Virus record (IMG/VR): IMGVR_UViG_2563366806_000004
Span: 1-44,644 of that record
Length of the DNA: 44,644 bases
From: a virus
Taxonomy: Duplodnaviria; Heunggongvirae; Uroviricota; Caudoviricetes
Reading direction: 5' to 3' (one strand)
Every line of letters starts with the position of its first letter. Position 1 is the stretch's first letter. Under the pieces are notes generated by a model. It had not been told where the DNA came from and ran no database searches. It saw only the letters and a list, made by a program, of their open reading frames with translations. The translations under genes were made by a program, and so were the position numbers. Of this stretch, positions 4,467 through 15,678 are shown one piece after another.

Positions 4467-4903
4467 TCTCCTTTACCGGTGCCATAGGCAGATAAGCACT
4501 CTTCAAATCCAGCCTGATTATCCGTTTGACCAAAACTGAAGCCATGCTGAAGACCATGACGAAATGCGCTATCTTGCAATTTATCTGCGGTTTCGAGCTT
4601 CGCCTCCAGTTCTGCTATGCGCTCTTCATAGCGAGCACCAACCGATACGGCTTTATGGAAGGCTTCGCACCACTTTGACGATTGCGCCTGCGTCTTCTCC
4701 AGCTCATCCAGCAGCGCCAGCACGGTAGTGGGGTTTGCTGCGGAGTTCAGCGCGTTCAAGGCAGTGATATCTGCATCAAGCTGAGGTCCTTCTGCCAGTG
4801 AGATATCGAAAATGTCATCAGGCGGCATAACACTAAGGCGCTCATGTGCGCCAACTGCTGCCGCTGCGATTTCACGCAGCGCCTGTTTGTCGATGTTGCT
4901 CAT
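4463..4903 (-). CDS. Ead/Ea22-like protein
   Basis: 146-aa ORF starting [16 protein letters not shown], coiled-coil; resembles Ead/Ea22-like proteins of E. coli prophages. Confidence 0.5.
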   Translation of the reverse strand: MSNIDKQALREIAAAAVGAHERLSVMPPDDIFDISLAEGPQLDADITALNALNSAANPTTVLALLDELEKTQAQSSKWCEAFHKAVSVGARYEERIAELEAKLETADKLQDSAFRHGLQHGFSFGQTDNQAGFEECLSAYGTGKGE

Positions 4904-5655: not shown

Positions 5656-5816
5656 ATCGCATTCAGATGTTTGTTTTGATTTACTGACGGAAAAGAATTT
5701 CTCTTAAGCAATTCCTCTCTCGATGGCATTGGCTTTACGCGTTGGCGAATAATCATTTCTGCCGGAAGAATGCCGGGATTGTATGCAAGTCCTCTCATGG
5801 TAAATTCCTCAGTCAT
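5634..5816 (-). CDS. Small hypothetical protein (start uncertain)
   Basis: 60-aa reading frame from internal ATG whose start overlaps the stop of the upstream 98-aa gene (ATGACTGA); alternative longer ORF 5634..5981 overlaps that gene. Confidence 0.3.
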
Positions 5817-6105
5817 TACTGATAGCGCCATAGCGTGAGCGGTAATTACGCAGGCGCGGGTCGATATATTCAGGGAAGTGGGTATATGTGGCTTTGCGGA
5901 ATGGTCGGATTGATGTCTGGTAAATTCGCTCGCGTTCTTCTTTCTCTGCAAGCCATATACAATGGCGAAATTCCTTTTCATCTTTCGTTTCCTGCGGTAG
6001 AGACATTATCTGGTCGTAGTTTTTCCTGAATTTATCCAGCACCTCCGATACGGAATTGCCGGAACAGCGGCGCGGGTCATCCGCACCATACTGAGGCGCT
6101 GGCAT
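5809..6105 (-). CDS. Hypothetical protein
   Basis: 98-aa ORF in leftward operon. Confidence 0.45.
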
Positions 6106-6118
6106 GATTTTCTCCTGA

Positions 6119-6598
6119 TTAAATTGCGTGAATAGCGTGACGAGGGAAGGGGAGAGTTACTGGCTCCTCGTCTGGGTAGATAGGTTTGTTATGTTTGTGC
6201 CACTCGACATGACATGACTTGCAGAGCCACATCACATCGGTTGGTTTACTGTAGTCGCAGTGGTGCGCCTGTGGTTTACATTCTGATCCGCAGCACTCAC
6301 ATTGTGGTGGTCGGATTAGCTTACCGTCGCGCAAAAAATTACCCACAATGATGTGGGCTTTTCTTTTCCATGGGTTGCTCTGAATGAACCGATTTTTGGC
6401 TGCGTTACACCGTTCTCTTCCGCGTTCCGATGATTGATATTCTCTCCTTGCTGATACTCGATGTGGCAATCCAGCGCGTTCTTTGTCGTATTCAGCCAGG
6501 CAAGCCCGGCAAGCGGCAGTTAATCCATCTCTGGATGCTCTTCTGATTTGAAAGTCCCTTTCTTCCTTCTGTTGATGGCATCTTGAGCAGATTTTCAT
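6119..6598 (-). CDS. HNH-motif endonuclease-like protein
   Basis: 159-aa ORF with Cys-rich N-terminus and C-terminal HHCDYSKPTDVMWLCKSCHVEWH HNH-type motif. Confidence 0.55.
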   Translation of the reverse strand: MKICSRCHQQKEERDFQIRRASRDGLTAACRACLAEYDKERAGLPHRVSARREYQSSERGRERCNAAKNRFIQSNPWKRKAHIIVGNFLRDGKLIRPPQCECCGSECKPQAHHCDYSKPTDVMWLCKSCHVEWHKHNKPIYPDEEPVTLPFPRHAIHAI

Positions 6599-6607
6599 AT
6601 TCAGCTC

Positions 6608-7081
6608 CTAGAACGGAATATCCGAATCGTCGAAGTTCATAGGTGGTTCGCTGTGATCCCCCTGCTGCTGAGGTTGCTGTCTTTGTTGCTGACCGCTATT
6701 TCGCTGAGGAGAAGACTGTTCATTGCCTCCTTGCTTGCCACCAAGCATTTGCATGGTTCCACCAACGCCCACGATGACTTCGGTAGTGAACCGATCCTGT
6801 CCGCTTTGATCCTGCCATTTTCTTGTCCGCAATTTGCCTTCAAGATAAACCTCAGAGCCTTTTCGCAGATATTCGCTGGCAATTTCTGCCAGTTTCCCGC
6901 TCATTACCACGCGGTGCCACTCCGTCTGCTCCTTTTGCTCTCCAGTTTGCTTATCACGCCATTGTTCTGACGTAGCAACTGTAAGGTTTGCAAATGCCGT
7001 TCCTGATGGTGAATATCTGATTTCTGGATCATGCCCAAGGCGACCAATAATGATCACCTTATTTACGCCTCTGCTTGCCAT
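6608..7081 (-). CDS. ssb: Single-stranded DNA-binding protein
   Basis: 157-aa [26 protein letters not shown]...TEWHRVV...DIPF; closely resembles E. coli SSB including the acidic C-terminal tail. Confidence 0.9.
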
Positions 7082-7789
7082 TTATGCCGCCTGTTTTAGT
7101 TCGTTAACTCTGATGTTCATTACCTGAACGCATTTAGCCTGCGCCTCCTCGTTGCCAGCCATTAATTGCCAGTCACGCTGATAACGCTCGATGAGTTTTT
7201 TCTTGTCAGTTTCTGTTGACGCATAATCGCTGAAGTCTTTCAGGATTTGTTCGCAGTCAACCGATGGAGATTTCTGGTTGATATTTTCTGGTGATGGTTT
7301 GTTATCTGATGCTGGGATTGCCCATCCCGGAAGCGATGGAGGGAGCCAGTAAAATCCTGTTCCATCTTTCAGTTTTGCCCTGTGCCATCCCTGCTTTTTA
7401 TCGAGAGATGTTTGTGCGAAACCTTCCTCAAGGTTATACAGATACCGACCGATTCCCCACTGAACGGCAGCGCGCTTCATTGCACCGGAACGACCACCTT
7501 TGACGGCTTCTACCTGCGTGTTTTCAGCAGCATCCCATTTGGTTACCCATTCGGAATCAATCTTGATTGATATGCCGCATTCAACTCCGCCGTTGTTGGG
7601 AATATCGCGGTATTCATTGCGCCATCCTGCTTTGCCGCAAACATCGTCCAGGCGTTTCATGATTGCCCGGTTCGTGACATAAGCCAGCACCATAGCCCAC
7701 ACCTTGCCATCGCGTGTTTTACCGCTTTGCTGTATTCGCCATTCGATATCTTCAGGGCTGAATGGCTCATCGAATTTATTCAAATCCAT
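7082..7789 (-). CDS. Rad52/Sak-like single-strand annealing protein
   Basis: 235-aa ORF; region GGVECGISIKIDSEWVTKWDAAE...GAMKRAAVQWGIGRYLY resembles Rad52-family annealing proteins; occupies the position of lambda bet. Confidence 0.55.
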   Translation of the reverse strand: MDLNKFDEPFSPEDIEWRIQQSGKTRDGKVWAMVLAYVTNRAIMKRLDDVCGKAGWRNEYRDIPNNGGVECGISIKIDSEWVTKWDAAENTQVEAVKGGRSGAMKRAAVQWGIGRYLYNLEEGFAQTSLDKKQGWHRAKLKDGTGFYWLPPSLPGWAIPASDNKPSPENINQKSPSVDCEQILKDFSDYASTETDKKKLIERYQRDWQLMAGNEEAQAKCVQVMNIRVNELKQAA

Positions 7790-7797
7790 AATTCACC

Positions 7798-7986
7798 TCA
7801 GAATGGTAATTCGGATGGGGAGGAAAGAAATTCGCGCTCATTCATGCGCTCTCTTTGTGCTTGCCATAAACAAAGTTGTTTCTTTGATTTATCTCCCGCT
7901 TTACGCCAGTAACGAGCCTCAGCAATGTGATATTCTCTTTTTAATCGACTTAACTCTGGAGTTTTCGCCAGCTCTACCGGAATCAT
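7798..7986 (-). CDS. Hypothetical protein
   Basis: 62-aa basic ORF between the annealing-protein gene and the kil-like gene. Confidence 0.4.
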   Translation of the reverse strand: MIPVELAKTPELSRLKREYHIAEARYWRKAGDKSKKQLCLWQAQRERMNEREFLSSPSELPF

Positions 7987-8096
7987 TTAGACCTCCATTT
8001 TCTGTAGGCTTCGACGGCCTCACGAAACATCTTTTCATCGCCAATAAAAGTGGCGATAGTGAATTTAGTCTGAATAGCCATAAGTGTTTTATCCAT
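7983..8096 (-). CDS. kil: Kil-like host-killing protein
   Basis: MDKTLMAIQTKFTIATFIGDEKMFREAVEAYRKW closely resembles the lambda Kil N-terminus (MDQTLMAIQTKFTIATFIGDEKMFREAV); an in-frame upstream ATG at 8186 would give a 67-aa form. Confidence 0.55.
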   Translation of the reverse strand: MDKTLMAIQTKFTIATFIGDEKMFREAVEAYRKWRSK

Positions 8097-8259
8097 TTTT
8101 TGGAACTCTTGGCTGATTAAGTACGTCGATGAGTCGTTTCCATCCGTCACGTAATTTACGGGTGATTCGTTCAAGTAAAGATTCATTTAGTTGGAAGGCA
8201 CCCATGCGAGCGCCTCCCGCGATTGCGTAAATCATGGGTGGTTCCTTATGTTGGTTTTA

Positions 8260-9228
8260 TTAGTAGGTTATTTTTGTTGCGAATACTTCGCCTTTTACGA
8301 TGGCTGTTATGATATTTTTAGCAACATCTTCTGATGCGCCAACCTTGATAAGGTCAGCAAGTATTTTGTTATTTACTTCTTTCCGGTGAGCTTTATCCTT
8401 TGCTCTACGCTCTTCTTCTTCCTTGATTCTTTTTTCTTCTGCTATTCTGGCTTGCTCTTTTGCTTCAGCCTCGCGCCGGATTCGTTCAGCCTCCTCCTGT
8501 GCTTTTCGGCGTTCTGCTTCAATTGCCGCCTGCTTTTCTCTTTCAGCTCGTTCTGCTGCCTCTTTTGCTTCGCGCTGTGCTCGTTGCTCGGCTTCAATGC
8601 GTTCACGCTCTGCACGTTCCGCTGCGGCCTTAGCTTCTGCTTCTCGCCTTGCTGCTGATTCAATTTCGGCTTTTGCCTTTGCTTCGGCTTCTGCTCTGGC
8701 TTTCTCTTCAGCTTCTCTTTTTAAGCGTTCTTCATGCTCTCGCTTTTCCTGCTCCGCTTTGAGTCTTGCCTCTTCTCTTTGGCGGTCAAATTCGCGATCC
8801 ATCAAAATAGCTATTTCATGATCAGACTCAATTTGCTTTGCGAGAGCTTCAGCTGCTGCCTTAGCTTCTTCTTCGGCTTTAATCCGCGCCTGTTCCTCCT
8901 CATAATCAGTAAGAGGCTGGCGAGCCTTGGCTTTCAGTTCATCAAGGCGATCGCGCACTGTCTTGCGGTTGGCATCAATTAGCTTTGGAATTTCCTTCAG
9001 TTCAGCAACAAGGTCTTTGCCAAGACCATCGAGATATGTTTTCGTCTGCGCAACTTTATACGCCAGAGAAGCGATCTCCTTTCTGCCCTTTGCCGTTGTG
9101 ATATCAGGCACAAAGGACATAACTTCACGTTCAACCTTTTGAAGGATTTCTTCAATCTGGTCTGCAGACTGAAATACAGTCATTGCATTTGCTTTTTCAA
9201 TAAAAACTAAGTCTGTTACTTCACTCAT
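8260..9228 (-). CDS. Lys/Ala/Glu/Arg-rich coiled-coil protein (TolA-like repetitive helical region)
   Basis: 322 aa from ATG at 9228 preceded by GGAGGA; the track ORF extends to 9282 but would run through a terminator hairpin; ~170-aa low-complexity stretch of EAKAKAE/ERAERE repeats. Confidence 0.6.
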   Translation of the reverse strand: MSEVTDLVFIEKANAMTVFQSADQIEEILQKVEREVMSFVPDITTAKGRKEIASLAYKVAQTKTYLDGLGKDLVAELKEIPKLIDANRKTVRDRLDELKAKARQPLTDYEEEQARIKAEEEAKAAAEALAKQIESDHEIAILMDREFDRQREEARLKAEQEKREHEERLKREAEEKARAEAEAKAKAEIESAARREAEAKAAAERAERERIEAEQRAQREAKEAAERAEREKQAAIEAERRKAQEEAERIRREAEAKEQARIAEEKRIKEEEERRAKDKAHRKEVNNKILADLIKVGASEDVAKNIITAIVKGEVFATKITY

Positions 9229-9240
9229 ATATCCTCCATC

Positions 9241-9267
9241 AAAAAAATCGCCCTCACATCGGAGGGC
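9241..9267 (-). terminator. Intrinsic terminator upstream of the coiled-coil gene
   Basis: Stem GCCCTC/GAGGGC with 6-nt loop followed on the minus strand by a run of seven T. Confidence 0.55.
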
Positions 9268-9362
9268 AAAGAAGATTTCCAATAATCAGAACAAGTCGGC
9301 TCCTGTTTAGTTACGAGCGACATTGCTCCGTGTATTCACTCGTTGGAATGAATACACAGTGC

Positions 9363-9575
9363 TTATTCGCGAGCTTTGAGCATGGCATCAGCAATAAAGT
9401 AGGCATCATCTGCTAATTCTTTGTACTGTGGTGAATTCTGTCCACCGCCAAAGGAATGTCCGTCCCATCTGCGCACTATTGCTGCCATAGCCTTAGCAGC
9501 GAAGTAATCACGTAATGTCGCATCACTTGCCATTTCTGGGCGTTTGATATCTGCTTCATAAAACTCGCACATCAT
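9363..9575 (-). CDS. Hypothetical protein
   Basis: 70-aa ORF, stop/start overlap with the upstream gene. Confidence 0.4.
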   Translation of the reverse strand: MMCEFYEADIKRPEMASDATLRDYFAAKAMAAIVRRWDGHSFGGGQNSPQYKELADDAYFIADAMLKARE

Positions 9576-9857: not shown

Positions 9858-9898
9858 TCTGTTGTTTATGCCAAAAATAAAGGCCGACTATGCGGCCT
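9858..9898. repeat. Direct repeat copy 1 (~40 bp, contains terminator hairpin)
   Basis: TCTGTTGTTTATGCCAAAAATAAAGGCCGACTATGCGGCCT, repeated with two differences at 10401..10439. Confidence 0.8.
9871..9898 (-). terminator. Intrinsic terminator after the 156-aa gene
   Basis: Stem AGGCCG/CGGCCT with loop ACTATG, followed on the minus strand by TTATTTTTGG. Confidence 0.55.
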
Positions 9899-10367
9899 AG
9901 TAGAATACCCAATTTTCTGTTTCTTGGTTGTGTCCAAAGTTATATTCAATATCTGGTGTTGATGTATCAATATTCTTCATCCCATCAACAAGAGTTGATA
10001 CAACAGCCAAATCTTGTTTGATTCTCATCAAATGGTATTTCTTCCGGCGCAATAAACTTTCAATGGCAAGTTTCTTCGTCGGGAACGCAAAAGATCTTTC
10101 TGCATTTTTTGCTACTTTCTTAATTGCATATCTATTTCTCCTTTGTTTCCATTCCTGTAACCACTGATTTGGTGCTGGTTTAAAATTAACAATCCAATGC
10201 GCAGGAACCAACCATGCATAATGCTCTGTCTGATGAAAAGCTATATATTGAAGTGCGAATATTTTGATTCCATCTTCTTCAACTGTCGCTTGGAATCTCC
10301 AGAAAACAGGCATTCCATCATGTTCAGTTTCTGATTCAGGAAAAGGTACGCTCCATGATTTTGTCAT
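9897..10367 (-). CDS. Hypothetical protein encoded by an AT-rich cassette
   Basis: 156-aa ORF with AT-rich codon usage unlike neighbours; own leader TTATTTGAGGTGAGATATG and own terminator; no recognisable motif. Confidence 0.55.
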   Translation of the reverse strand: MTKSWSVPFPESETEHDGMPVFWRFQATVEEDGIKIFALQYIAFHQTEHYAWLVPAHWIVNFKPAPNQWLQEWKQRRNRYAIKKVAKNAERSFAFPTKKLAIESLLRRKKYHLMRIKQDLAVVSTLVDGMKNIDTSTPDIEYNFGHNQETENWVFY

Positions 10368-10400
10368 ATCTCACCTCAAATAATTCAGTGCAGTGTTTAT

Positions 10401-10439
10401 TCTGTTGTTTATGCCAAAAGAAGGCCGACTATGCGGCCT
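10401..10439. repeat. Direct repeat copy 2 (contains terminator hairpin)
   Basis: TCTGTTGTTTATGCCAAAAGAAGGCCGACTATGCGGCCT. Confidence 0.8.
10412..10439 (-). terminator. Intrinsic terminator after the membrane-protein gene
   Basis: Same AGGCCG-actatg-CGGCCT hairpin as at 9881..9898, followed on the minus strand by a T-rich tract. Confidence 0.55.
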
Positions 10440-10443
10440 GAAA

Positions 10444-10893
10444 TTACTTAACCAATGATGCTGCATATTCGATAAGGTAAAGATTTGGGGTCAGCCAAAT
10501 TTTTAACCAAGTCATATTGGTTACTACACCAATAATAAAAATCCCCCACAGAGTCAAAACTACAACCAATGGCATGATAAGAAGATTAATATCACCTTTG
10601 CTATCCCAAACCATTGTCGGCCTGTATTTGGGATTTCCTTTCTCCCATGAATATCCTTCATCACCGATTTTACCTGTCTCAACTCTTTGGCACTGCTTCT
10701 TCATAAACCAGAAAACCAGTGGGATTGTTAGAATGGCCATTAATGTTTTAATCAGACTGTCAACCATATTCCATAGCAGCAACTGATGAACAACATCAGG
10801 AATCTGTGCCTGGCTAAATGAAACAGCCGCGTCTATTCCATTACTGGCTTTTTGCAGTAGTTCTACGAGAATCTTGTTTGCTTGTTCTTCCAT
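10444..10893 (-). CDS. Two-pass membrane protein encoded by an AT-rich cassette (possible superinfection-exclusion or abortive-infection function)
   Basis: 149-aa ORF; two hydrophobic helices (LIKTLMAILTIPLVFWFM and INLLIMPLVVVLTLWGIFIIGVV); leader identical to that of the 156-aa gene; position left of N is where lambda and P22 carry sieB. Confidence 0.55.
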   Translation of the reverse strand: MEEQANKILVELLQKASNGIDAAVSFSQAQIPDVVHQLLLWNMVDSLIKTLMAILTIPLVFWFMKKQCQRVETGKIGDEGYSWEKGNPKYRPTMVWDSKGDINLLIMPLVVVLTLWGIFIIGVVTNMTWLKIWLTPNLYLIEYAASLVK

Positions 10894-10947
10894 ATCTCAC
10901 CTCAAATAAGTGGTTTGCTGCGAAAGTAAATACGCTTAAGTTACCTG

Positions 10948-11085
10948 TTATTTATCCCACCAAGTTCCGTATCTATCTATCCAGTTACACCAATCATCGA
11001 CACTCCATTTTGTTGTGTCGCATTTTGGCAACTGGCATGAATATCTACCTTCTTTGTAAAGTCGGCGTTTGACTTTCTTGAGCAT
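10948..11085 (-). CDS. Small Cys-containing hypothetical protein
   Basis: 45-aa ORF MLKKVKRRLYKEGRYSCQLPKCDTTKWSVDDWCNWIDRYGTWWDK directly after the N stop codon with GAGGTGAG Shine-Dalgarno; below the ORF-track length cut-off. Confidence 0.4.
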   Translation of the reverse strand: MLKKVKRRLYKEGRYSCQLPKCDTTKWSVDDWCNWIDRYGTWWDK

Positions 11086-11093
11086 GGCTCACC

Positions 11094-11426
11094 TCAATCG
11101 TAATAAGCTGGAATTGATTTTCCGCGTTGCTTCTGGCGGCCTGAGCAGGTCAACCCCATTTCACTGCGTGGCTTGCTGTACCATGTGCGCTGATTCTTGC
11201 GCTCAATACGCTGCAGGTTGCTTTCAATCTGTTCGTGGTATTCAGCCAGCACCGTAAGGTCTATCGGATTCAGTGCGCTTTCTACTCGTGATTTCGGTTT
11301 GCGATTCAGCGAGAGAATAGGGCGGTTAACTGGTTTTGCGCTTACCCCAACCAACAGGGGATTTGCTGCTTTCCATTGAACCTGTTTCTCTGCGCGACGT
11401 TCGCGGCGGCGTGTTTGTGCATCCAT
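11094..11426 (-). CDS. N: Antitermination protein N
   Basis: 110-aa ORF MDAQTRRRERRAEKQVQWKAANPLLVGVSAKPVNRPILSL, recognised as lambda N; nutL lies upstream. Confidence 0.9.
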   Translation of the reverse strand: MDAQTRRRERRAEKQVQWKAANPLLVGVSAKPVNRPILSLNRKPKSRVESALNPIDLTVLAEYHEQIESNLQRIERKNQRTWYSKPRSEMGLTCSGRQKQRGKSIPAYYD

Positions 11427-11764: not shown

Positions 11765-11828
11765 ATAATCACAAATTGTGTTCGTGCTGTCAACACGAAA
11801 TGTGATTGTTTTTATCACAACACGTGTT
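11765..11828 (-). promoter_or_regulatory. pL promoter with three operator sites (oL)
   Basis: Three 15-bp sites of form ATCACA-N3-YGTGTT at 11768..11782, 11792..11806, 11814..11828; minus-strand -35 TTGACA (11793..11788) and -10 GATTAT (11770..11765), 17-nt spacer. Confidence 0.65.
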
Positions 11829-11914: not shown

Positions 11915-12556
11915 TCAGGAGAATTTCATCATCATCTGCACTGCTACGCCGATTATCTTGCAGTTGCCGTCGATTGGGATCAACGGATAGGCAGGGTTAA
12001 GCCCTTTCAGGTATTTGTTACCGCCATCAATGATTAGCTTCTTGAACGTGGCTTCATTAGCATCTGTCAGCTTCGCAACTACCAGGCTTCCATTAACGGC
12101 TTCCTTTCCAGTGTCGAACAGAACCAGCATACCCTCAGGAACGCTAAGGCCGGTAGGAGCTGTCATTGAGTCGCCCTGAACCCTGAGCCAGAAGGCGTCA
12201 CCGACAACGTGACAATCTGATTCATACCACTCATCCACTGCCTGAGGGTTGTACGGCTCTACGGCCTCACTCCATGCACCTGCGCTAACCCAGCTAATCA
12301 ACGGAAACTTTTCCCCTGGCTTGTATTGTCCCTGATAGTTGTCGCCAAAAAGCAGTTCTGCCGGAGCGACGCCCAAAGCTTTAGCTATTACCTCTGCGTC
12401 ATCAACACTAACGCTTCTGGTTCCTGATTCATAGTTGCCGATCCGAGATTGTGAAGCCCAGCCGCAAAGCTCCGCCAGAGCCTTCTGTGAAAGCCCTTTA
12501 TCTTCCCGTAATCGCTTGATACGCGCGGCGATAGTTTCTGTTCTGTTCATGCGCAT
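11915..12556 (-). CDS. cI: CI-like prophage repressor (XRE-type HTH plus S24 LexA-like autopeptidase domain)
   Basis: 213-aa ORF; N-terminal HTH (LSQKALAELCGWASQSRIGNYESG); Ala-Gly cleavage site (SAGAW); GDSM serine motif and downstream Lys; flanked by oL and oR; not lambda cI. Confidence 0.8.
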   Translation of the reverse strand: MRMNRTETIAARIKRLREDKGLSQKALAELCGWASQSRIGNYESGTRSVSVDDAEVIAKALGVAPAELLFGDNYQGQYKPGEKFPLISWVSAGAWSEAVEPYNPQAVDEWYESDCHVVGDAFWLRVQGDSMTAPTGLSVPEGMLVLFDTGKEAVNGSLVVAKLTDANEATFKKLIIDGGNKYLKGLNPAYPLIPIDGNCKIIGVAVQMMMKFS

Positions 12557-12916: not shown

Positions 12917-12995
12917 ATCAAATTAAACCACACCTATGGTGTATGCATTTATTTGCATACATTCAATCAATTGTTATCTAAGGAAATACTTACAT

Positions 12996-13274
12996 ATGCA
13001 ACTTACAAGTACTCGCAAGAAAGCGAATGCAATTACAAGCAACATCCTGAATCGAATTGCTGTACGTGGTCAGCGAAAGGTTGCCGACGCGTTAGGGATT
13101 AATGAATCGCAAATTTCGCGATGGAAAGACAGCTTCATCCCAAAAATGGGAATGCTTCTGGCTGTTCTTGAATGGGGTGTTGAAGACGAGGAGTTGGCGG
13201 AACTGGCTAAGAAAGTAGCCAGAATGCTGACAAAAGAAAAAGCCCCGAAGAACGGCGAATTCTTCGAGGCCTGA
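12996..13274 (+). CDS. cII: Transcriptional activator CII
   Basis: 92 aa from ATG 12996 with the lambda cII leader TTATCTAAGGAAATACTTACATATG; KVADALGINESQISRWK...PKMGMLLAVLEWGV resembles lambda CII. Confidence 0.8.
   Translation: MQLTSTRKKANAITSNILNRIAVRGQRKVADALGINESQISRWKDSFIPKMGMLLAVLEWGVEDEELAELAKKVARMLTKEKAPKNGEFFEA
13231..13270 (-). terminator. Minus-strand intrinsic terminator overlapping the cII 3' end (oop-RNA-like position)
   Basis: 11-bp stem with one mismatch (GCCCCGAAGAA/TTCTTCGAGGC), 7-nt loop, followed on the minus strand by TTTTTCTTTTG. Confidence 0.45.
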
Positions 13275-13308: not shown

Positions 13309-13953
13309 ATGACATACGAAAATGACAAATTCCAGGTTCTGAAGAGCATGAAGGTGCCAGATGATTTTAAATCAAATGGCTTTGTTTATGTGCTTTCTAA
13401 TGAGTGCATGCCAGGAATTTATAAGATTGGGATGACTAAGCATTCACCAGAAGTTAGGGCTAAAGAAATTTCAGCCTCTACTGGCGTTCCTAAGCCATTT
13501 AAGGTGATAGCAGCCTTTCATTCAAATAATCCCGCATCAGATGAAAAACTCATTCATAAAGCCTTTGCAAAAGAGAGGCTTAGTGATAATCGAGAGTTTT
13601 TCAAGCTTGAAGATAATGAGCTTTCTGAATCTCTAAATGAAATAAGGGCGCTGGTTGGCCCTGAAAGAAATGGCGAGACGGCAGAATACGCAATTTACGA
13701 CTCATTCATTTCTTTTCGCCATGAAAATGAGCTTGATCTTAATGAGGAGCTTATAGAGCAAGGTCTGGGTAGTGTAGTTGGTCATCTTCCTGCGGTGAAA
13801 AATTTCCTTATTCGCGCCGGAATTGATTACGCGAAGCAACTGATAAGCAAATATAACTCATCGATAGTTATTAATACAGATGGCAGTGTGGTGATGGTTA
13901 AGTCTCTTGAAGCCCAATGCTTTGATGCGGAGGTTGGAAATGAGCCTGGCTGA
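13309..13953 (+). CDS. T5orf172 / GIY-YIG-like domain protein (accessory gene between cII and O)
   Basis: 214-aa ORF, RBS CAGGAG; N-terminal NGFVYVLSNECMPGIYKIGMTKHSPEVRAKEIS...PFKVIAAFHSNN...REFFKL resembles the T5orf172 (GIY-YIG-like) domain; AT-rich; 3' end overlaps O start by 14 nt. Confidence 0.6.
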   Translation: MTYENDKFQVLKSMKVPDDFKSNGFVYVLSNECMPGIYKIGMTKHSPEVRAKEISASTGVPKPFKVIAAFHSNNPASDEKLIHKAFAKERLSDNREFFKLEDNELSESLNEIRALVGPERNGETAEYAIYDSFISFRHENELDLNEELIEQGLGSVVGHLPAVKNFLIRAGIDYAKQLISKYNSSIVINTDGSVVMVKSLEAQCFDAEVGNEPG

Positions 13954-14782
13954 AGTATTTTACCTGTCGAAGAGTGAACCTGTTGAACAGGAGCGAAGAG
14001 TGGCTGATATCGATGATGGTTACACCAGATTCGCTAACGAGCTGCTGGAAGCTATCGCAAGTGCTGATTTAACCGCTCGCCAGTTGAAAGTTATGCTGGC
14101 CTACGTCCGGAAAACATATGGATTCAATAAGAAAACAGATCGAATAGCCGATGAGCAAATTGCTCAGTTAACAGGACTGTCAAGGCAGAATGTTAACAAG
14201 GCTAAAAAAGAACTGATTTCAATGAATTGCCTGTTTATGGATGGAAATCAAATCGGTGTAAACAGTGAGGTATCTGCGTGGCAATTCAGCAAGTGTCTCC
14301 AAGTTAGCAACTTTGTCTCGAAGTTAGAGACAAAAAATGTCTCCAAATTAGAGACACTCAATGTCTCGAAGTTAGAGACACACAAAAGACATTCTTTAAA
14401 GACAAAAGAAAATATTAATAAACCCCCTATATCCCCCAAAAAAGTTTCTCAGAAGTTCGACCCGCTAGAAACAGAGTTGCCTGATTGGTTATCAGCAGAA
14501 ACATGGTTGTCGTGGGTTACCTATCGCAAGGAGATAGGTAAGTCGATCAAGTCTAAGCAAAGTGTCACTCAGGCTATCAACGTTCTAAGCAGAAGTCTGG
14601 AGAAGGGATATACACCTGAAGAAATTATAAACCAGAGCATCGCCAGTGGTTGGCAGGGGATTTTTGAACCCAAGACTCCAAAGGGGAAATCTCAACCGAG
14701 GCCGCAGCAGCGAGCTATGCAGGAAAACTTTGCCGCCAAAGATTACGGGCAAACTGAAATGCCTTCATGGGCGCAGGAGTGA
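13940..14782 (+). CDS. O: Replication initiator, lambda O-like (N-terminal iteron-binding domain)
   Basis: 280 aa from ATG 13940 (RBS GGAGG); ERRVADIDDGYTRFANELLEA...LKVMLAYVRKTYGFNK resembles lambda O N-terminus; iterons inside the gene. Confidence 0.75.
   Translation: MSLAEVFYLSKSEPVEQERRVADIDDGYTRFANELLEAIASADLTARQLKVMLAYVRKTYGFNKKTDRIADEQIAQLTGLSRQNVNKAKKELISMNCLFMDGNQIGVNSEVSAWQFSKCLQVSNFVSKLETKNVSKLETLNVSKLETHKRHSLKTKENINKPPISPKKVSQKFDPLETELPDWLSAETWLSWVTYRKEIGKSIKSKQSVTQAINVLSRSLEKGYTPEEIINQSIASGWQGIFEPKTPKGKSQPRPQQRAMQENFAAKDYGQTEMPSWAQE
14294..14380. repeat. ori: Replication origin iterons (four ~19-bp repeats at 20-24 bp spacing)
   Basis: TGTCTCGAAGTTAGAGACA-type repeats at 14294, 14314, 14338, 14362, followed by an A/T-rich tract 14390..14450. 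Confidence 0.75.
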
Positions 14783-14784
14783 AT

Positions 14785-15678
14785 ATGAATACGACAAATG
14801 GTTACAATCTGGCACTGCAAAGGCAACTTGTAGACTCAAAAATCAATGACATTTCTGATCTGAAACAGAAACTTGAGTTTAGCAAAATTGGATCAGCATC
14901 AGATGGAATGTCAGTTACCAGCACAGTGGAAGAGTGCGAGAAACACGGTAAATATACTTCCTATGAGAAATATCTGACCATCTCAGGAAAAAGAATTACT
15001 TCAAGTAAATCTGAGTGCCCACAGTGCCTTGAGGAGAAAATTCGTAAGAAAGAGATTGAACGTGAGCAGGCAGAACAAAGAGCAAGACAATCAAAAATTG
15101 AATATTTGTTGAATTCTCTCAATATTCCAGAGAGGTTCAAAAATTGCACTCTTCAGAATTATGAGCCTGTTAACGATGATGCAAAGCGAGTTCTTAAGGT
15201 ATGCCAGGCATATGCCAGTAAGTGGCCTGAACGCCTTCAGAAAGGTGGCGGACTGGTCATGTGTGGTAAGCCTGGAACTGGAAAGAACCACCTTGCACTG
15301 GCTATCGCTAGGCACGCCATTATCGAGCATCAAAGCTCTGTGATATTTACCACTGCGTTGAAAATTGCCAGAGAGTACAAATCAACATGGTCTAAGGCCG
15401 CAACCAGAACTGAAGAAGAAGTCATTAGGCAATTTACGCATCCTGACTTGTTAATAATCGATGAGGTTGGCGTGCAGTTCGGCAGTGATGCTGAAAAGCT
15501 AATCATGTTCGAAATTATCAACACCAGATATGAATACATGAAGCCAACAATCCTGATTAGTAATCAGAGCAAAGATGAACTTTCGGCATTCATTGGTGAG
15601 CGTGTTATTGACAGGATGAATGATGGCGGCGGATGCACCCTTGCGTTTACATGGGATAGTTACAGGAGCAGATCGTGA
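14785..15678 (+). CDS. DnaC/IstB-like AAA+ helicase loader
   Basis: 297 aa from ATG 14785; Walker A GKPGTGKNHLALAIA and Walker B LLIIDEVG; occupies the position of lambda P. Confidence 0.75.
   Translation: MNTTNGYNLALQRQLVDSKINDISDLKQKLEFSKIGSASDGMSVTSTVEECEKHGKYTSYEKYLTISGKRITSSKSECPQCLEEKIRKKEIEREQAEQRARQSKIEYLLNSLNIPERFKNCTLQNYEPVNDDAKRVLKVCQAYASKWPERLQKGGGLVMCGKPGTGKNHLALAIARHAIIEHQSSVIFTTALKIAREYKSTWSKAATRTEEEVIRQFTHPDLLIIDEVGVQFGSDAEKLIMFEIINTRYEYMKPTILISNQSKDELSAFIGERVIDRMNDGGGCTLAFTWDSYRSRS

Follow-up and report, generated by a model that had tools for sequence, protein, structure and literature searches.

The GenBank record of phage phi80 (Lula) describes the product of the agt gene as an "anti-toxin for Gam; Mog (modifier of Gam)" and that of the next gene, gamL, as a "gam-like host nuclease inhibitor; toxic without Mog." GamL inhibits RecBCD in a way that is not understood, as stated with citation of the phi80 study (PMC12315714), and is predicted to share the fold of lambda Gam, which is a DNA mimic (PMC12315714). 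In phages of Firmicutes, the slot adjacent to the annealing protein gene is filled by Mu-Gam-like, DUF2483, gp157, or DUF1351 genes, and the authors of that survey take the shared slot as a sign of analogous function (PMC8093625). Here, we analyze an agt-like gene coding for a protein of 322 residues (positions 8260 to 9228, minus strand; stop codon at 8260 to 8262) in the IMG/VR virus record IMGVR_UViG_2563366806_000004 (positions 1 to 44,644). This whole stretch of 44,644 nucleotides, referred to below as the window, is a lambda-like E. coli prophage, and the gene is a genuine and intact member of its early-left (pL) operon.

Relationship of the gene to phi80 agt

BLASTP aligned the window protein with phi80 Agt (Mog; gp39; YP_007947961) over 322 of 322 residues (50% identity; E = 2e-64). 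Phi80 Agt also has 322 residues, the alignment includes the charged helix and the C-terminal domain described below, and both genes are located in an N-dependent early-left operon upstream of recombination genes. Identity is 40% in the N-terminal domain, 68% in the middle, and 38% in the C-terminal domain. The two loci differ downstream, since agt is followed by gamL, recT, and exo in phi80, whereas the window gene is followed by cIII, kil, and genes for a Rad52-type annealing protein, SSB, an HNH nuclease, and Abc2. Relief of GamL toxicity has no substrate in the window, in which tblastn detected no gamL. Residues 1 to 322 also matched PHROG 1376, a family of unknown function (E = 5e-109). 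In phage genomes, tblastn found near-identical genes in mEp043, mEp234, mEp213, HK633, Sf101, HF4s, and Stx1a phages and relatives of the N-terminal domain in phages of Pseudomonas, Vibrio, Yersinia, Erwinia, Klebsiella, and Acinetobacter. A literature search covering Agt and GamL, DUF1351, coiled-coil proteins encoded close to annealing proteins, and use of the TolA name in phages found no functional study of the family, for which Pfam has no model. We assign the protein, with great confidence, to the phi80 Agt family and its architecture; the gene has nothing unusual within its phage family, which is known but has no established biochemical role. Phi80 Agt is the informative relative missed by an earlier reading of the window, made from the nucleotide sequence and its open reading frames (the sequence-only reading).

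Assignment to the early-left operon, already made in that reading, is borne out by the lambda-like content of the window, which includes integrase (positions 1419 to 2489), cI-type repressor (11915 to 12556), and cII (12936 to 13274) genes. The N antiterminator gene (11094 to 11426, minus strand; Pfam N36, E = 1e-25) is located upstream in the same operon, and a promoter scan identified a pL-like promoter at positions 11793 to 11765. The longest open reading frame at the site extends from a TTG codon at 9282 to 8260 on the minus strand (340 residues). Translation from the ATG at 9228, to which the start had been moved, gives the 322-residue protein and is preceded, 4 nt 5′ of the ATG, by a GGAGG Shine-Dalgarno sequence (9237 to 9233, minus strand) that is conserved in close loci. 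Database homologues, in the hundreds, all share this Met start (MSEVTDL), and the upstream extension was found in one automatic gene call only. The revised start is thus correct.

The intrinsic terminator placed just upstream of the gene, inside the pL operon (9241 to 9267, minus strand), was likewise recovered by a terminator scan and by RNA folding (−17.9 kcal/mol). Read from 9267 to 9241, this terminator-like hairpin consists of GCCCTC-CGATGT-GAGGGC, with a 6-nt loop, followed by GA and seven T residues. Close loci were defined as the 80 IMG/VR loci encoding an N-terminal domain 99% identical to that of the window protein. The stem is retained in most of these close relatives, the differences being located mainly in the loop, and the homology between the close loci and the window does not extend farther than about 100 nt upstream of the ATG, indicating that the hairpin and the gene travel together. 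The minimum-free-energy structure also contains a predicted outer stem around the terminator (ΔG, −17.9 kcal/mol; z = −2.2), in which a CU-rich stretch (9276 to 9270, minus strand) tentatively pairs with the Shine-Dalgarno region (9237 to 9231); in transcripts that read through, this stem could make the ribosome-binding site inaccessible.

Three-part architecture and length of the central helix

Conservation and composition agree in dividing the protein into an N-terminal domain, a charged middle of about 170 residues, and a short C-terminal domain, as had been proposed from the translation. The conserved helical N-terminal domain (residues 1 to 115; positions 8884 to 9228, minus strand) was delimited by phmmer, alignment columns, and AlphaFold2, conservation reaching to about residue 115. 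It contains 13 positions with at least 80% Lys or Arg, and the isoelectric point of residues 41 to 108 is 9.5. The conserved basic positions are spaced mostly i, i+3/4, i+7, which suggests that they form one helical face. The central segment (residues 113 to 282; 8383 to 8892, minus strand), identified by its composition, its charge pattern, and the AlphaFold2 model, contains 28% Glu, 25% Ala, 16% Arg, and 11% Lys; the composition of residues 1 to 112 and 283 to 322 is ordinary. The C-terminal domain of about 40 residues (residues 283 to 322; 8263 to 8382, minus strand) carries the motif H..N..L..G.sE..AK....AI..G.I..V.I.Y and ends at the terminal Tyr.

The same layout recurs in a large family. 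A phmmer search with residues 1 to 135 matched 5,006 representative clusters (50% identity) at an E value of ≤1e-3 and 3,561 at ≤1e-10, the matches being always N-terminal, in proteins of about 280 to 400 residues. Across 84 diverse representatives, the middle region has a median length of 181 residues (interquartile range, 159 to 197), consists of 76% Glu, Lys, Arg, Asp, Ala, and Gln, and shows a median i/i+4 charge z-score of 4.4. A profile of the C-terminal motif matched 86 of 150 representatives, ending at the last residue; this count uses the permissive reporting threshold of phmmer (E ≤ 10), most E values being far better. Sequence comparison indicates that the N- and C-terminal domains are shuffled between lineages. 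The N-terminal domains of two family members, P0115 and P0117, are 89% and 58% identical to that of the window protein, respectively, and their C-terminal domains are 22% and 100% identical.

Within the charged segment, opposite charges are enriched at i/i+4 (z = 7.4 and 4.6), and Ala residues recur with a period of 3.67 residues (z = 5.7 to 6.4), forming one continuous face. Large hydrophobic residues are sparse (about 8% Ile plus Leu), and the 3.5-residue hydrophobic periodicity of heptads is absent (z = −1.0). An AlphaFold2 model of the window protein, built from an alignment of 48 sequences, has a mean predicted local distance difference test (pLDDT) value of 81.7 and a predicted template modeling (pTM) score of only 0.29. 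It contains helices at residues 12 to 20 and 22 to 38, followed by a loop, and at residues 46 to 175, 191 to 295, and 300 to 311, the last being a small C-terminal element. Models of family members superpose with root mean square deviations (rmsd) of 79 to 103 Å, which suggests extended rods. No membrane anchor or signal peptide was found, the top 19-residue Kyte-Doolittle window scoring 1.03 and the N terminus being acidic.

The sequence-only reading had called the protein a coiled coil. The long charged helix stands, but the hydrophobic periodicity of a coiled coil is missing and, because i/i+4 charges are enriched without a heptad signal, the segment looks more like an ER/K-type single alpha-helix (SAH) spacer than a classical coiled coil. 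ER/K SAH domains occur in myosin VI and X, caldesmon, and MAP4K4. The central helix resembles these domains in its high content of Glu, Arg, and Lys, its i/i+4 pairs, the lack of a hydrophobic seam, its conserved length, and its position between two putative binding domains. It differs from them in being unusually rich in Ala (25%), with an Ala stripe of 3.67-residue period, and in its length, about 170 residues being long for the class; its monomeric state is a prediction from these features.

The underlying DNA had been described as a periodic repeat prone to slippage and misassembly. No clear periodicity was recovered: Tandem Repeats Finder reported just three weak arrays (scores of 36 to 48), a repeat search returned only imperfect families of 27 to 37 nt, and autocorrelation gave modest peaks at 8 and 22 residues and at 24 nt (z of about 3 to 4). 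Nor did comparison of related prophages reveal a repeat-length artifact, the protein having exactly 322 residues in 78 of the 80 close loci. The sequence is carried by 567 of 5,426 complete E. coli genomes (about 10%), mostly at 95 to 99% identity, the window gene being an ordinary intact copy of it, and of the 574 complete-genome E. coli records with a match, 503 span 80% or more of the query. The dominant protein cluster at 90% identity (471 member sequences) is 322 residues long, as are the versions found in Enterobacter, Cronobacter, Citrobacter, and Salmonella. Compared to the window protein, the Enterobacter, Cronobacter, and Salmonella versions are 92 to 94% identical in the N-terminal domain, 85 to 95% in the C-terminal domain, and 56 to 58% in the middle, with zero gaps. 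The length of the helix is thus conserved in these alignments while its sequence drifts. Both the frame and the C-terminal domain are kept down to 35 to 40% identity.

Slippage, in the form of occasional deletions, did find support. Rare singleton variants of 245 to 333 residues occur among proteins that are 98 to 99% identical, and every indel is located within the charged helix (in-frame sizes of 11, 13, 16, 18, 20, 22, 26, 32, 47, and 77 residues). Most junctions fall at direct repeats of 4 to 9 nt, as exemplified by a 66-nt deletion at GCAGC in phage HK633. Microhomology-mediated deletion therefore happens occasionally at direct repeats of the charged helix, and misassembly is unlikely here. 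The two shorter close copies, in L007 (gene from position 6001) and L020 (gene from position 4734), encode 306 and 284 residues as a result of 1-nt frameshifts, one of which sits in a run of A residues; the frameshifts truncate the C-terminal domain, and these copies could be pseudogenes or sequencing errors. Repeat contraction is ruled out as the cause of their shorter proteins. The coding strand of the charged segment is of low complexity, with 72% A plus G, and because of this purine content long antisense open reading frames (90 to 132 residues; positions 8386 to 8821, plus strand; rich in Ser, Ala, Phe, Leu, and Cys) overlap the segment. They confused crude gene calling in 14 related loci.

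Recombination modules and possible role

On the minus strand of the window, the order is N, three small open reading frames, terminator, agt-like gene, cIII, kil, Arf-like gene, and genes for Rad52-type annealing protein, SSB, HNH nuclease, and Abc2, with terminator-like hairpins between N and the agt-like gene. Pfam and PHROG matches identified the downstream recombination module (5809 to 7986, minus strand), which comprises the Arf-like gene (7798 to 7986) and the genes for the Rad52-type annealing protein (7082 to 7789), SSB (6608 to 7081), HNH nuclease (6119 to 6598), and Abc2, an anti-RecBCD protein (5809 to 6105). The association with recombination genes extends beyond close relatives. 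We analyzed 80 diverse genome loci by clustering crude calls of open reading frames; 69 had at least 3 kb on each side, and 59 of these contain a gene for an annealing protein, an exonuclease, or SSB on the same strand between −3 and +4 kb. The annealing proteins of the diverse loci are of the ERF (19 loci), RecT (8 loci), ERF/Rad52 (6 loci), Bet (5 loci), and Sak4 (3 loci) types. The agt-like gene is located directly upstream of Erf and exonuclease genes in phage D3, after ERF and SSB genes in Vibrio phage phiV039C, upstream of cIII, a RecE-like gene, and RecT in a Yersinia phage, upstream of Sak4-type genes in Azotobacter and Stutzerimonas prophages, upstream of RecT, YqaJ, and SSB genes in a Proteus prophage, and between ERF-YqaJ and SSB genes in a Comamonas prophage.

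Among the 64 close loci with enough flanking sequence, the downstream annealing protein is of the Rad52 type in 26, Erf in 23, RecT in 8, and Sak4 in 7. Since near-identical proteins accompany four families of annealing proteins, the Agt-like protein cannot depend on one particular annealing protein. Abc2 is encoded in 56 of these 64 loci, and no recognized inhibitor was found in the remaining 8. The gene for cIII, located immediately downstream in the window (8089 to 8235, minus strand; Pfam Lambda_CIII, E = 1e-22), is a constant neighbor, a homologue being present in all 64 close loci (scanned from about 1 to 6.5 kb downstream of the gene start). The longest open reading frame for kil (67 residues from the ATG at 8186; region 7983 to 8235, minus strand) overlaps cIII by about 100 nt. 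The real start of kil is probably an internal Met codon, since the Pfam Kil match covers only residues 32 to 62.

Agt-like genes share with Gam-type genes (lambda Gam, Mu Gam, and phi80 GamL) the slot immediately upstream of the annealing protein (PMC8093625; PMC12315714). They differ from these in that the Agt-like protein has no sequence or fold similarity to them, is much larger and rod-like, and co-occurs with inhibitors (Abc2 and GamL) rather than replacing them. DUF1351 proteins of Firmicutes phages resemble the Agt-like protein in size and in the location of their genes next to those for Erf, RecT, or Sak4 and SSB (PMC8093625). Streptococcus phage MM1 ORF10, a true DUF1351 (PF07083) protein of 330 residues, lies between Erf and SSB in this order, and one member of the Agt-like family bears the DUF1351 name in UniRef. 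The N-terminal succession of a coil, a helix of about 15 residues, a loop, and a long helix with a Pro break is similar in the AlphaFold2 models of the window protein and of MM1 ORF10, whereas DUF1351 proteins have neither the long ER/K segment nor a C-terminal ...I.Y domain. Homology was not supported by any of the comparisons: hmmscan gave no DUF1351 match for 31 family members, and a run at E ≤ 10 was also negative; hhalign gave a probability of 0.3 to 0.6% with a shallow DUF1351 profile (members at least 78% identical); and when BFVD was searched by Foldseek with the MM1 ORF10 model (pLDDT, 68), DUF1351 proteins alone were retrieved and none of the Agt-like family. DUF1351 is accordingly regarded as a positional analogue of the Agt-like family, homology not being shown by a comparison with so shallow a profile.

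The best explanation of these observations, which we judge to have about an even chance of being right as a whole, is that the gene product, a member of the Agt family, is a delayed-early, rod-shaped protein of the cytoplasm that acts as an accessory of recombination or of protection against nucleases. The functional part of this reading, i.e., that the protein is an accessory of the recombination/anti-nuclease module, is tentative. The gene would be transcribed leftward from pL and expressed only when N-modified RNA polymerase passes the upstream terminator hairpin. The charged helix would act as a spacer of fixed length, about 25 nm (170 residues at 1.5 Å per residue), setting the distance between the basic N-terminal domain and a C-terminal docking domain, and both end domains would bind partners. 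Because N-terminal domains that are 99% identical accompany four types of annealing proteins, the partner would be a shared target rather than one annealing protein and might be common to all modules, for example, DNA ends or single-stranded DNA, host RecBCD or SSB, or nuclease inhibitors that mimic DNA. A basic, DNA-binding N-terminal domain could, speculatively, sequester the DNA mimic GamL, which would explain the phi80 "antitoxin" phenotype without this being the general role of the family. We consider more doubtful the broader proposal that the Agt-like family is an unrecognized and widespread core accessory and molecular ruler of the annealing modules of Proteobacteria phages, whichever annealing protein they encode; such a ruler might act on DNA ends, by tethering or shielding them, or moderate RecBCD inhibitors such as GamL and Abc2. 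As a large family without a Pfam model that is linked to modules with five types of annealing proteins, the Agt-like proteins are reasonable candidates for a missing accessory of recombineering systems or for the control of RecBCD inhibitors. Conserved length combined with drifting sequence also makes them a clean example, in bacterial viruses, of a probable single-alpha-helix spacer.

Several points weigh against this explanation. The activity ascribed to Agt rests on the annotation of the phi80 GenBank record. The agt-like gene is followed by gamL in just two of about 170 loci, phi80 and L102, a rarity that prevents the reported activity from being the general role. The synteny with recombination genes may be due simply to the gene order conserved among early-left operons. 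Pfam, NCBIfam, PADLOC, PDB sequence searches, and Foldseek identified no known fold, DNA-binding or other. The PDB searches, run with the whole protein and with profiles of the N- and C-terminal domains, gave nothing significant, the best matches of the C-terminal domain being UBA-like (LATS2 UBA, E = 0.26; RuvA domain III, E = 0.58) and a weak lead; Foldseek gave no match below E = 0.9 against the PDB and only the family itself against BFVD. Finally, the AlphaFold2 model has a low-confidence break at residues 176 to 190, between two long helices of similar length, and the Ala stripe could pack helix on helix, giving a dimer or a hairpin. These last two features are also those expected if the same protein, with the same role, formed an oligomeric coiled coil, whether parallel, antiparallel, or folded as a hairpin through the Ala stripe; in the antiparallel form, the N-terminal domain of one chain would lie beside the C-terminal domain of another. 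Relatives are labeled "coiled-coil domain-containing" in the sources, and the Ala content and continuous face fit this arrangement. The scarcity of Ile and Leu, the lack of heptad periodicity, and the strong i/i+4 pairing, a hallmark of single ER/K helices, do not, nor do the natural in-frame indels, which break a heptad register (these variants being known from their sequences), or the low pTM score and very large rmsd between models, which speak against a compact hairpin. We regard the oligomeric form as unlikely, if a serious contender. A phage copy or mimic of TolA that reaches across the periplasm and influences the import of colicins or phages or the integrity of the envelope is very improbable. 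RefSeq, UniRef, and JGI name such proteins "cell envelope biogenesis protein TolA" or "colicin import membrane protein," and the likeness to the TolA helical domain seen in the sequence-only reading does hold for composition, TolA domain II being a long Lys/Ala/Glu-rich helix. It does not extend to homology: BLASTP against E. coli K-12 TolA gave E = 0.27, limited to 60 low-complexity residues; Pfam and NCBIfam gave no family match to the window protein, TolA models included; the conserved N- and C-terminal domains are unrelated to TolA domains I and III; and the protein, which appears cytoplasmic, lacks the membrane anchor and the TolA C-terminal domain, its gene lying in a phage recombination context rather than with tolQRA. 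Homology to TolA is ruled out by the E value, the lack of a TolA model match, and the missing anchor. The common RefSeq name of these prophage genes is, to judge from the alignments, a misannotation driven by composition. The other lead that had been suggested, a division inhibitor, found no evidence linking the protein to division inhibition.

Low complexity, the purine-rich coding strand, the spurious antisense reading frames, and the length variants in databases could together point to an assembly or slippage artifact or to a decaying open reading frame read in the wrong frame. Against the constant length in close loci and in the 471-member cluster, the coverage in E. coli records, the conserved frame and C-terminal domain, and the ungapped alignment of a divergent middle region, this possibility is negligible. 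The functional alternatives carry more weight. The protein could be devoted to host takeover or to countering defenses, like ral, abc2, or gam, and be linked to recombination through operon order only. Terminator, gene, and cIII form a mosaic unit next to a freely swapped recombination module, the end domains are shuffled as they would be under arms-race pressure, and the early-left operon also encodes Abc2 and Kil. There was no PADLOC match, the PADLOC library being one of defense rather than anti-defense proteins, and adjacency to recombination genes persists across gamma-, beta-, and alphaproteobacterial prophages with very different operon layouts, such as ERF-YqaJ-gene-SSB in Comamonas and ERF-SSB-gene in Vibrio phage phiV039C; this alternative therefore appears rather unlikely. 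A narrow reading of the phi80 annotations of agt and gamL would assign the protein solely to a Gam-like RecBCD inhibitor, as its antitoxin or chaperone, and the order agt-like, gamL-like, annealing protein does recur in L102. That reading is improbable, since the window contains no gamL, GamL occurs in 2 of about 170 loci, and close relatives accompany Abc2 or no recognized inhibitor. The gamL-like gene of L102 (positions 9088 to 9369), the sole GamL homologue outside phi80 among these loci (52% identity), sits directly after the agt-like gene and directly before the gene for a Bet-like annealing protein.

Other features of the neighborhood

A 70-residue open reading frame located just upstream of the agt-like gene (9363 to 9575, minus strand) belongs to phrog_2201, of unknown function, and is a second conserved neighbor. 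In 13 of the 80 diverse loci (cluster 9 in loci L091 to L170), relatives of it precede the agt-like gene by 0.4 to 1.9 kb. Farther upstream, an intergenic cassette recurs with a spacing of about 543 nt (9858 to 9898, 10401 to 10439, and 10944 to 10962) with an identical terminator-like hairpin, AGGCCGCATAGTCGGCCT, as one of its parts. A block holding a ribosome-binding site and a start codon is likewise repeated without change (10365 to 10383 and 10891 to 10909). Because of the recurrence of the hairpin cassette and of the start codon block, two unrelated open reading frames (9897 to 10367 and 10444 to 10893) share their flanking sequences on both the 5′ and the 3′ sides, which look like mosaic junctions or the boundaries of moron cassettes.

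In five Pseudomonas and Achromobacter prophages, genes for Avd and reverse transcriptase resembling those of diversity-generating retroelements are located 4 to 5 kb downstream of the agt-like gene (L132, positions 13938 to 15095; L165, positions 12148 to 12537; and three similar loci).

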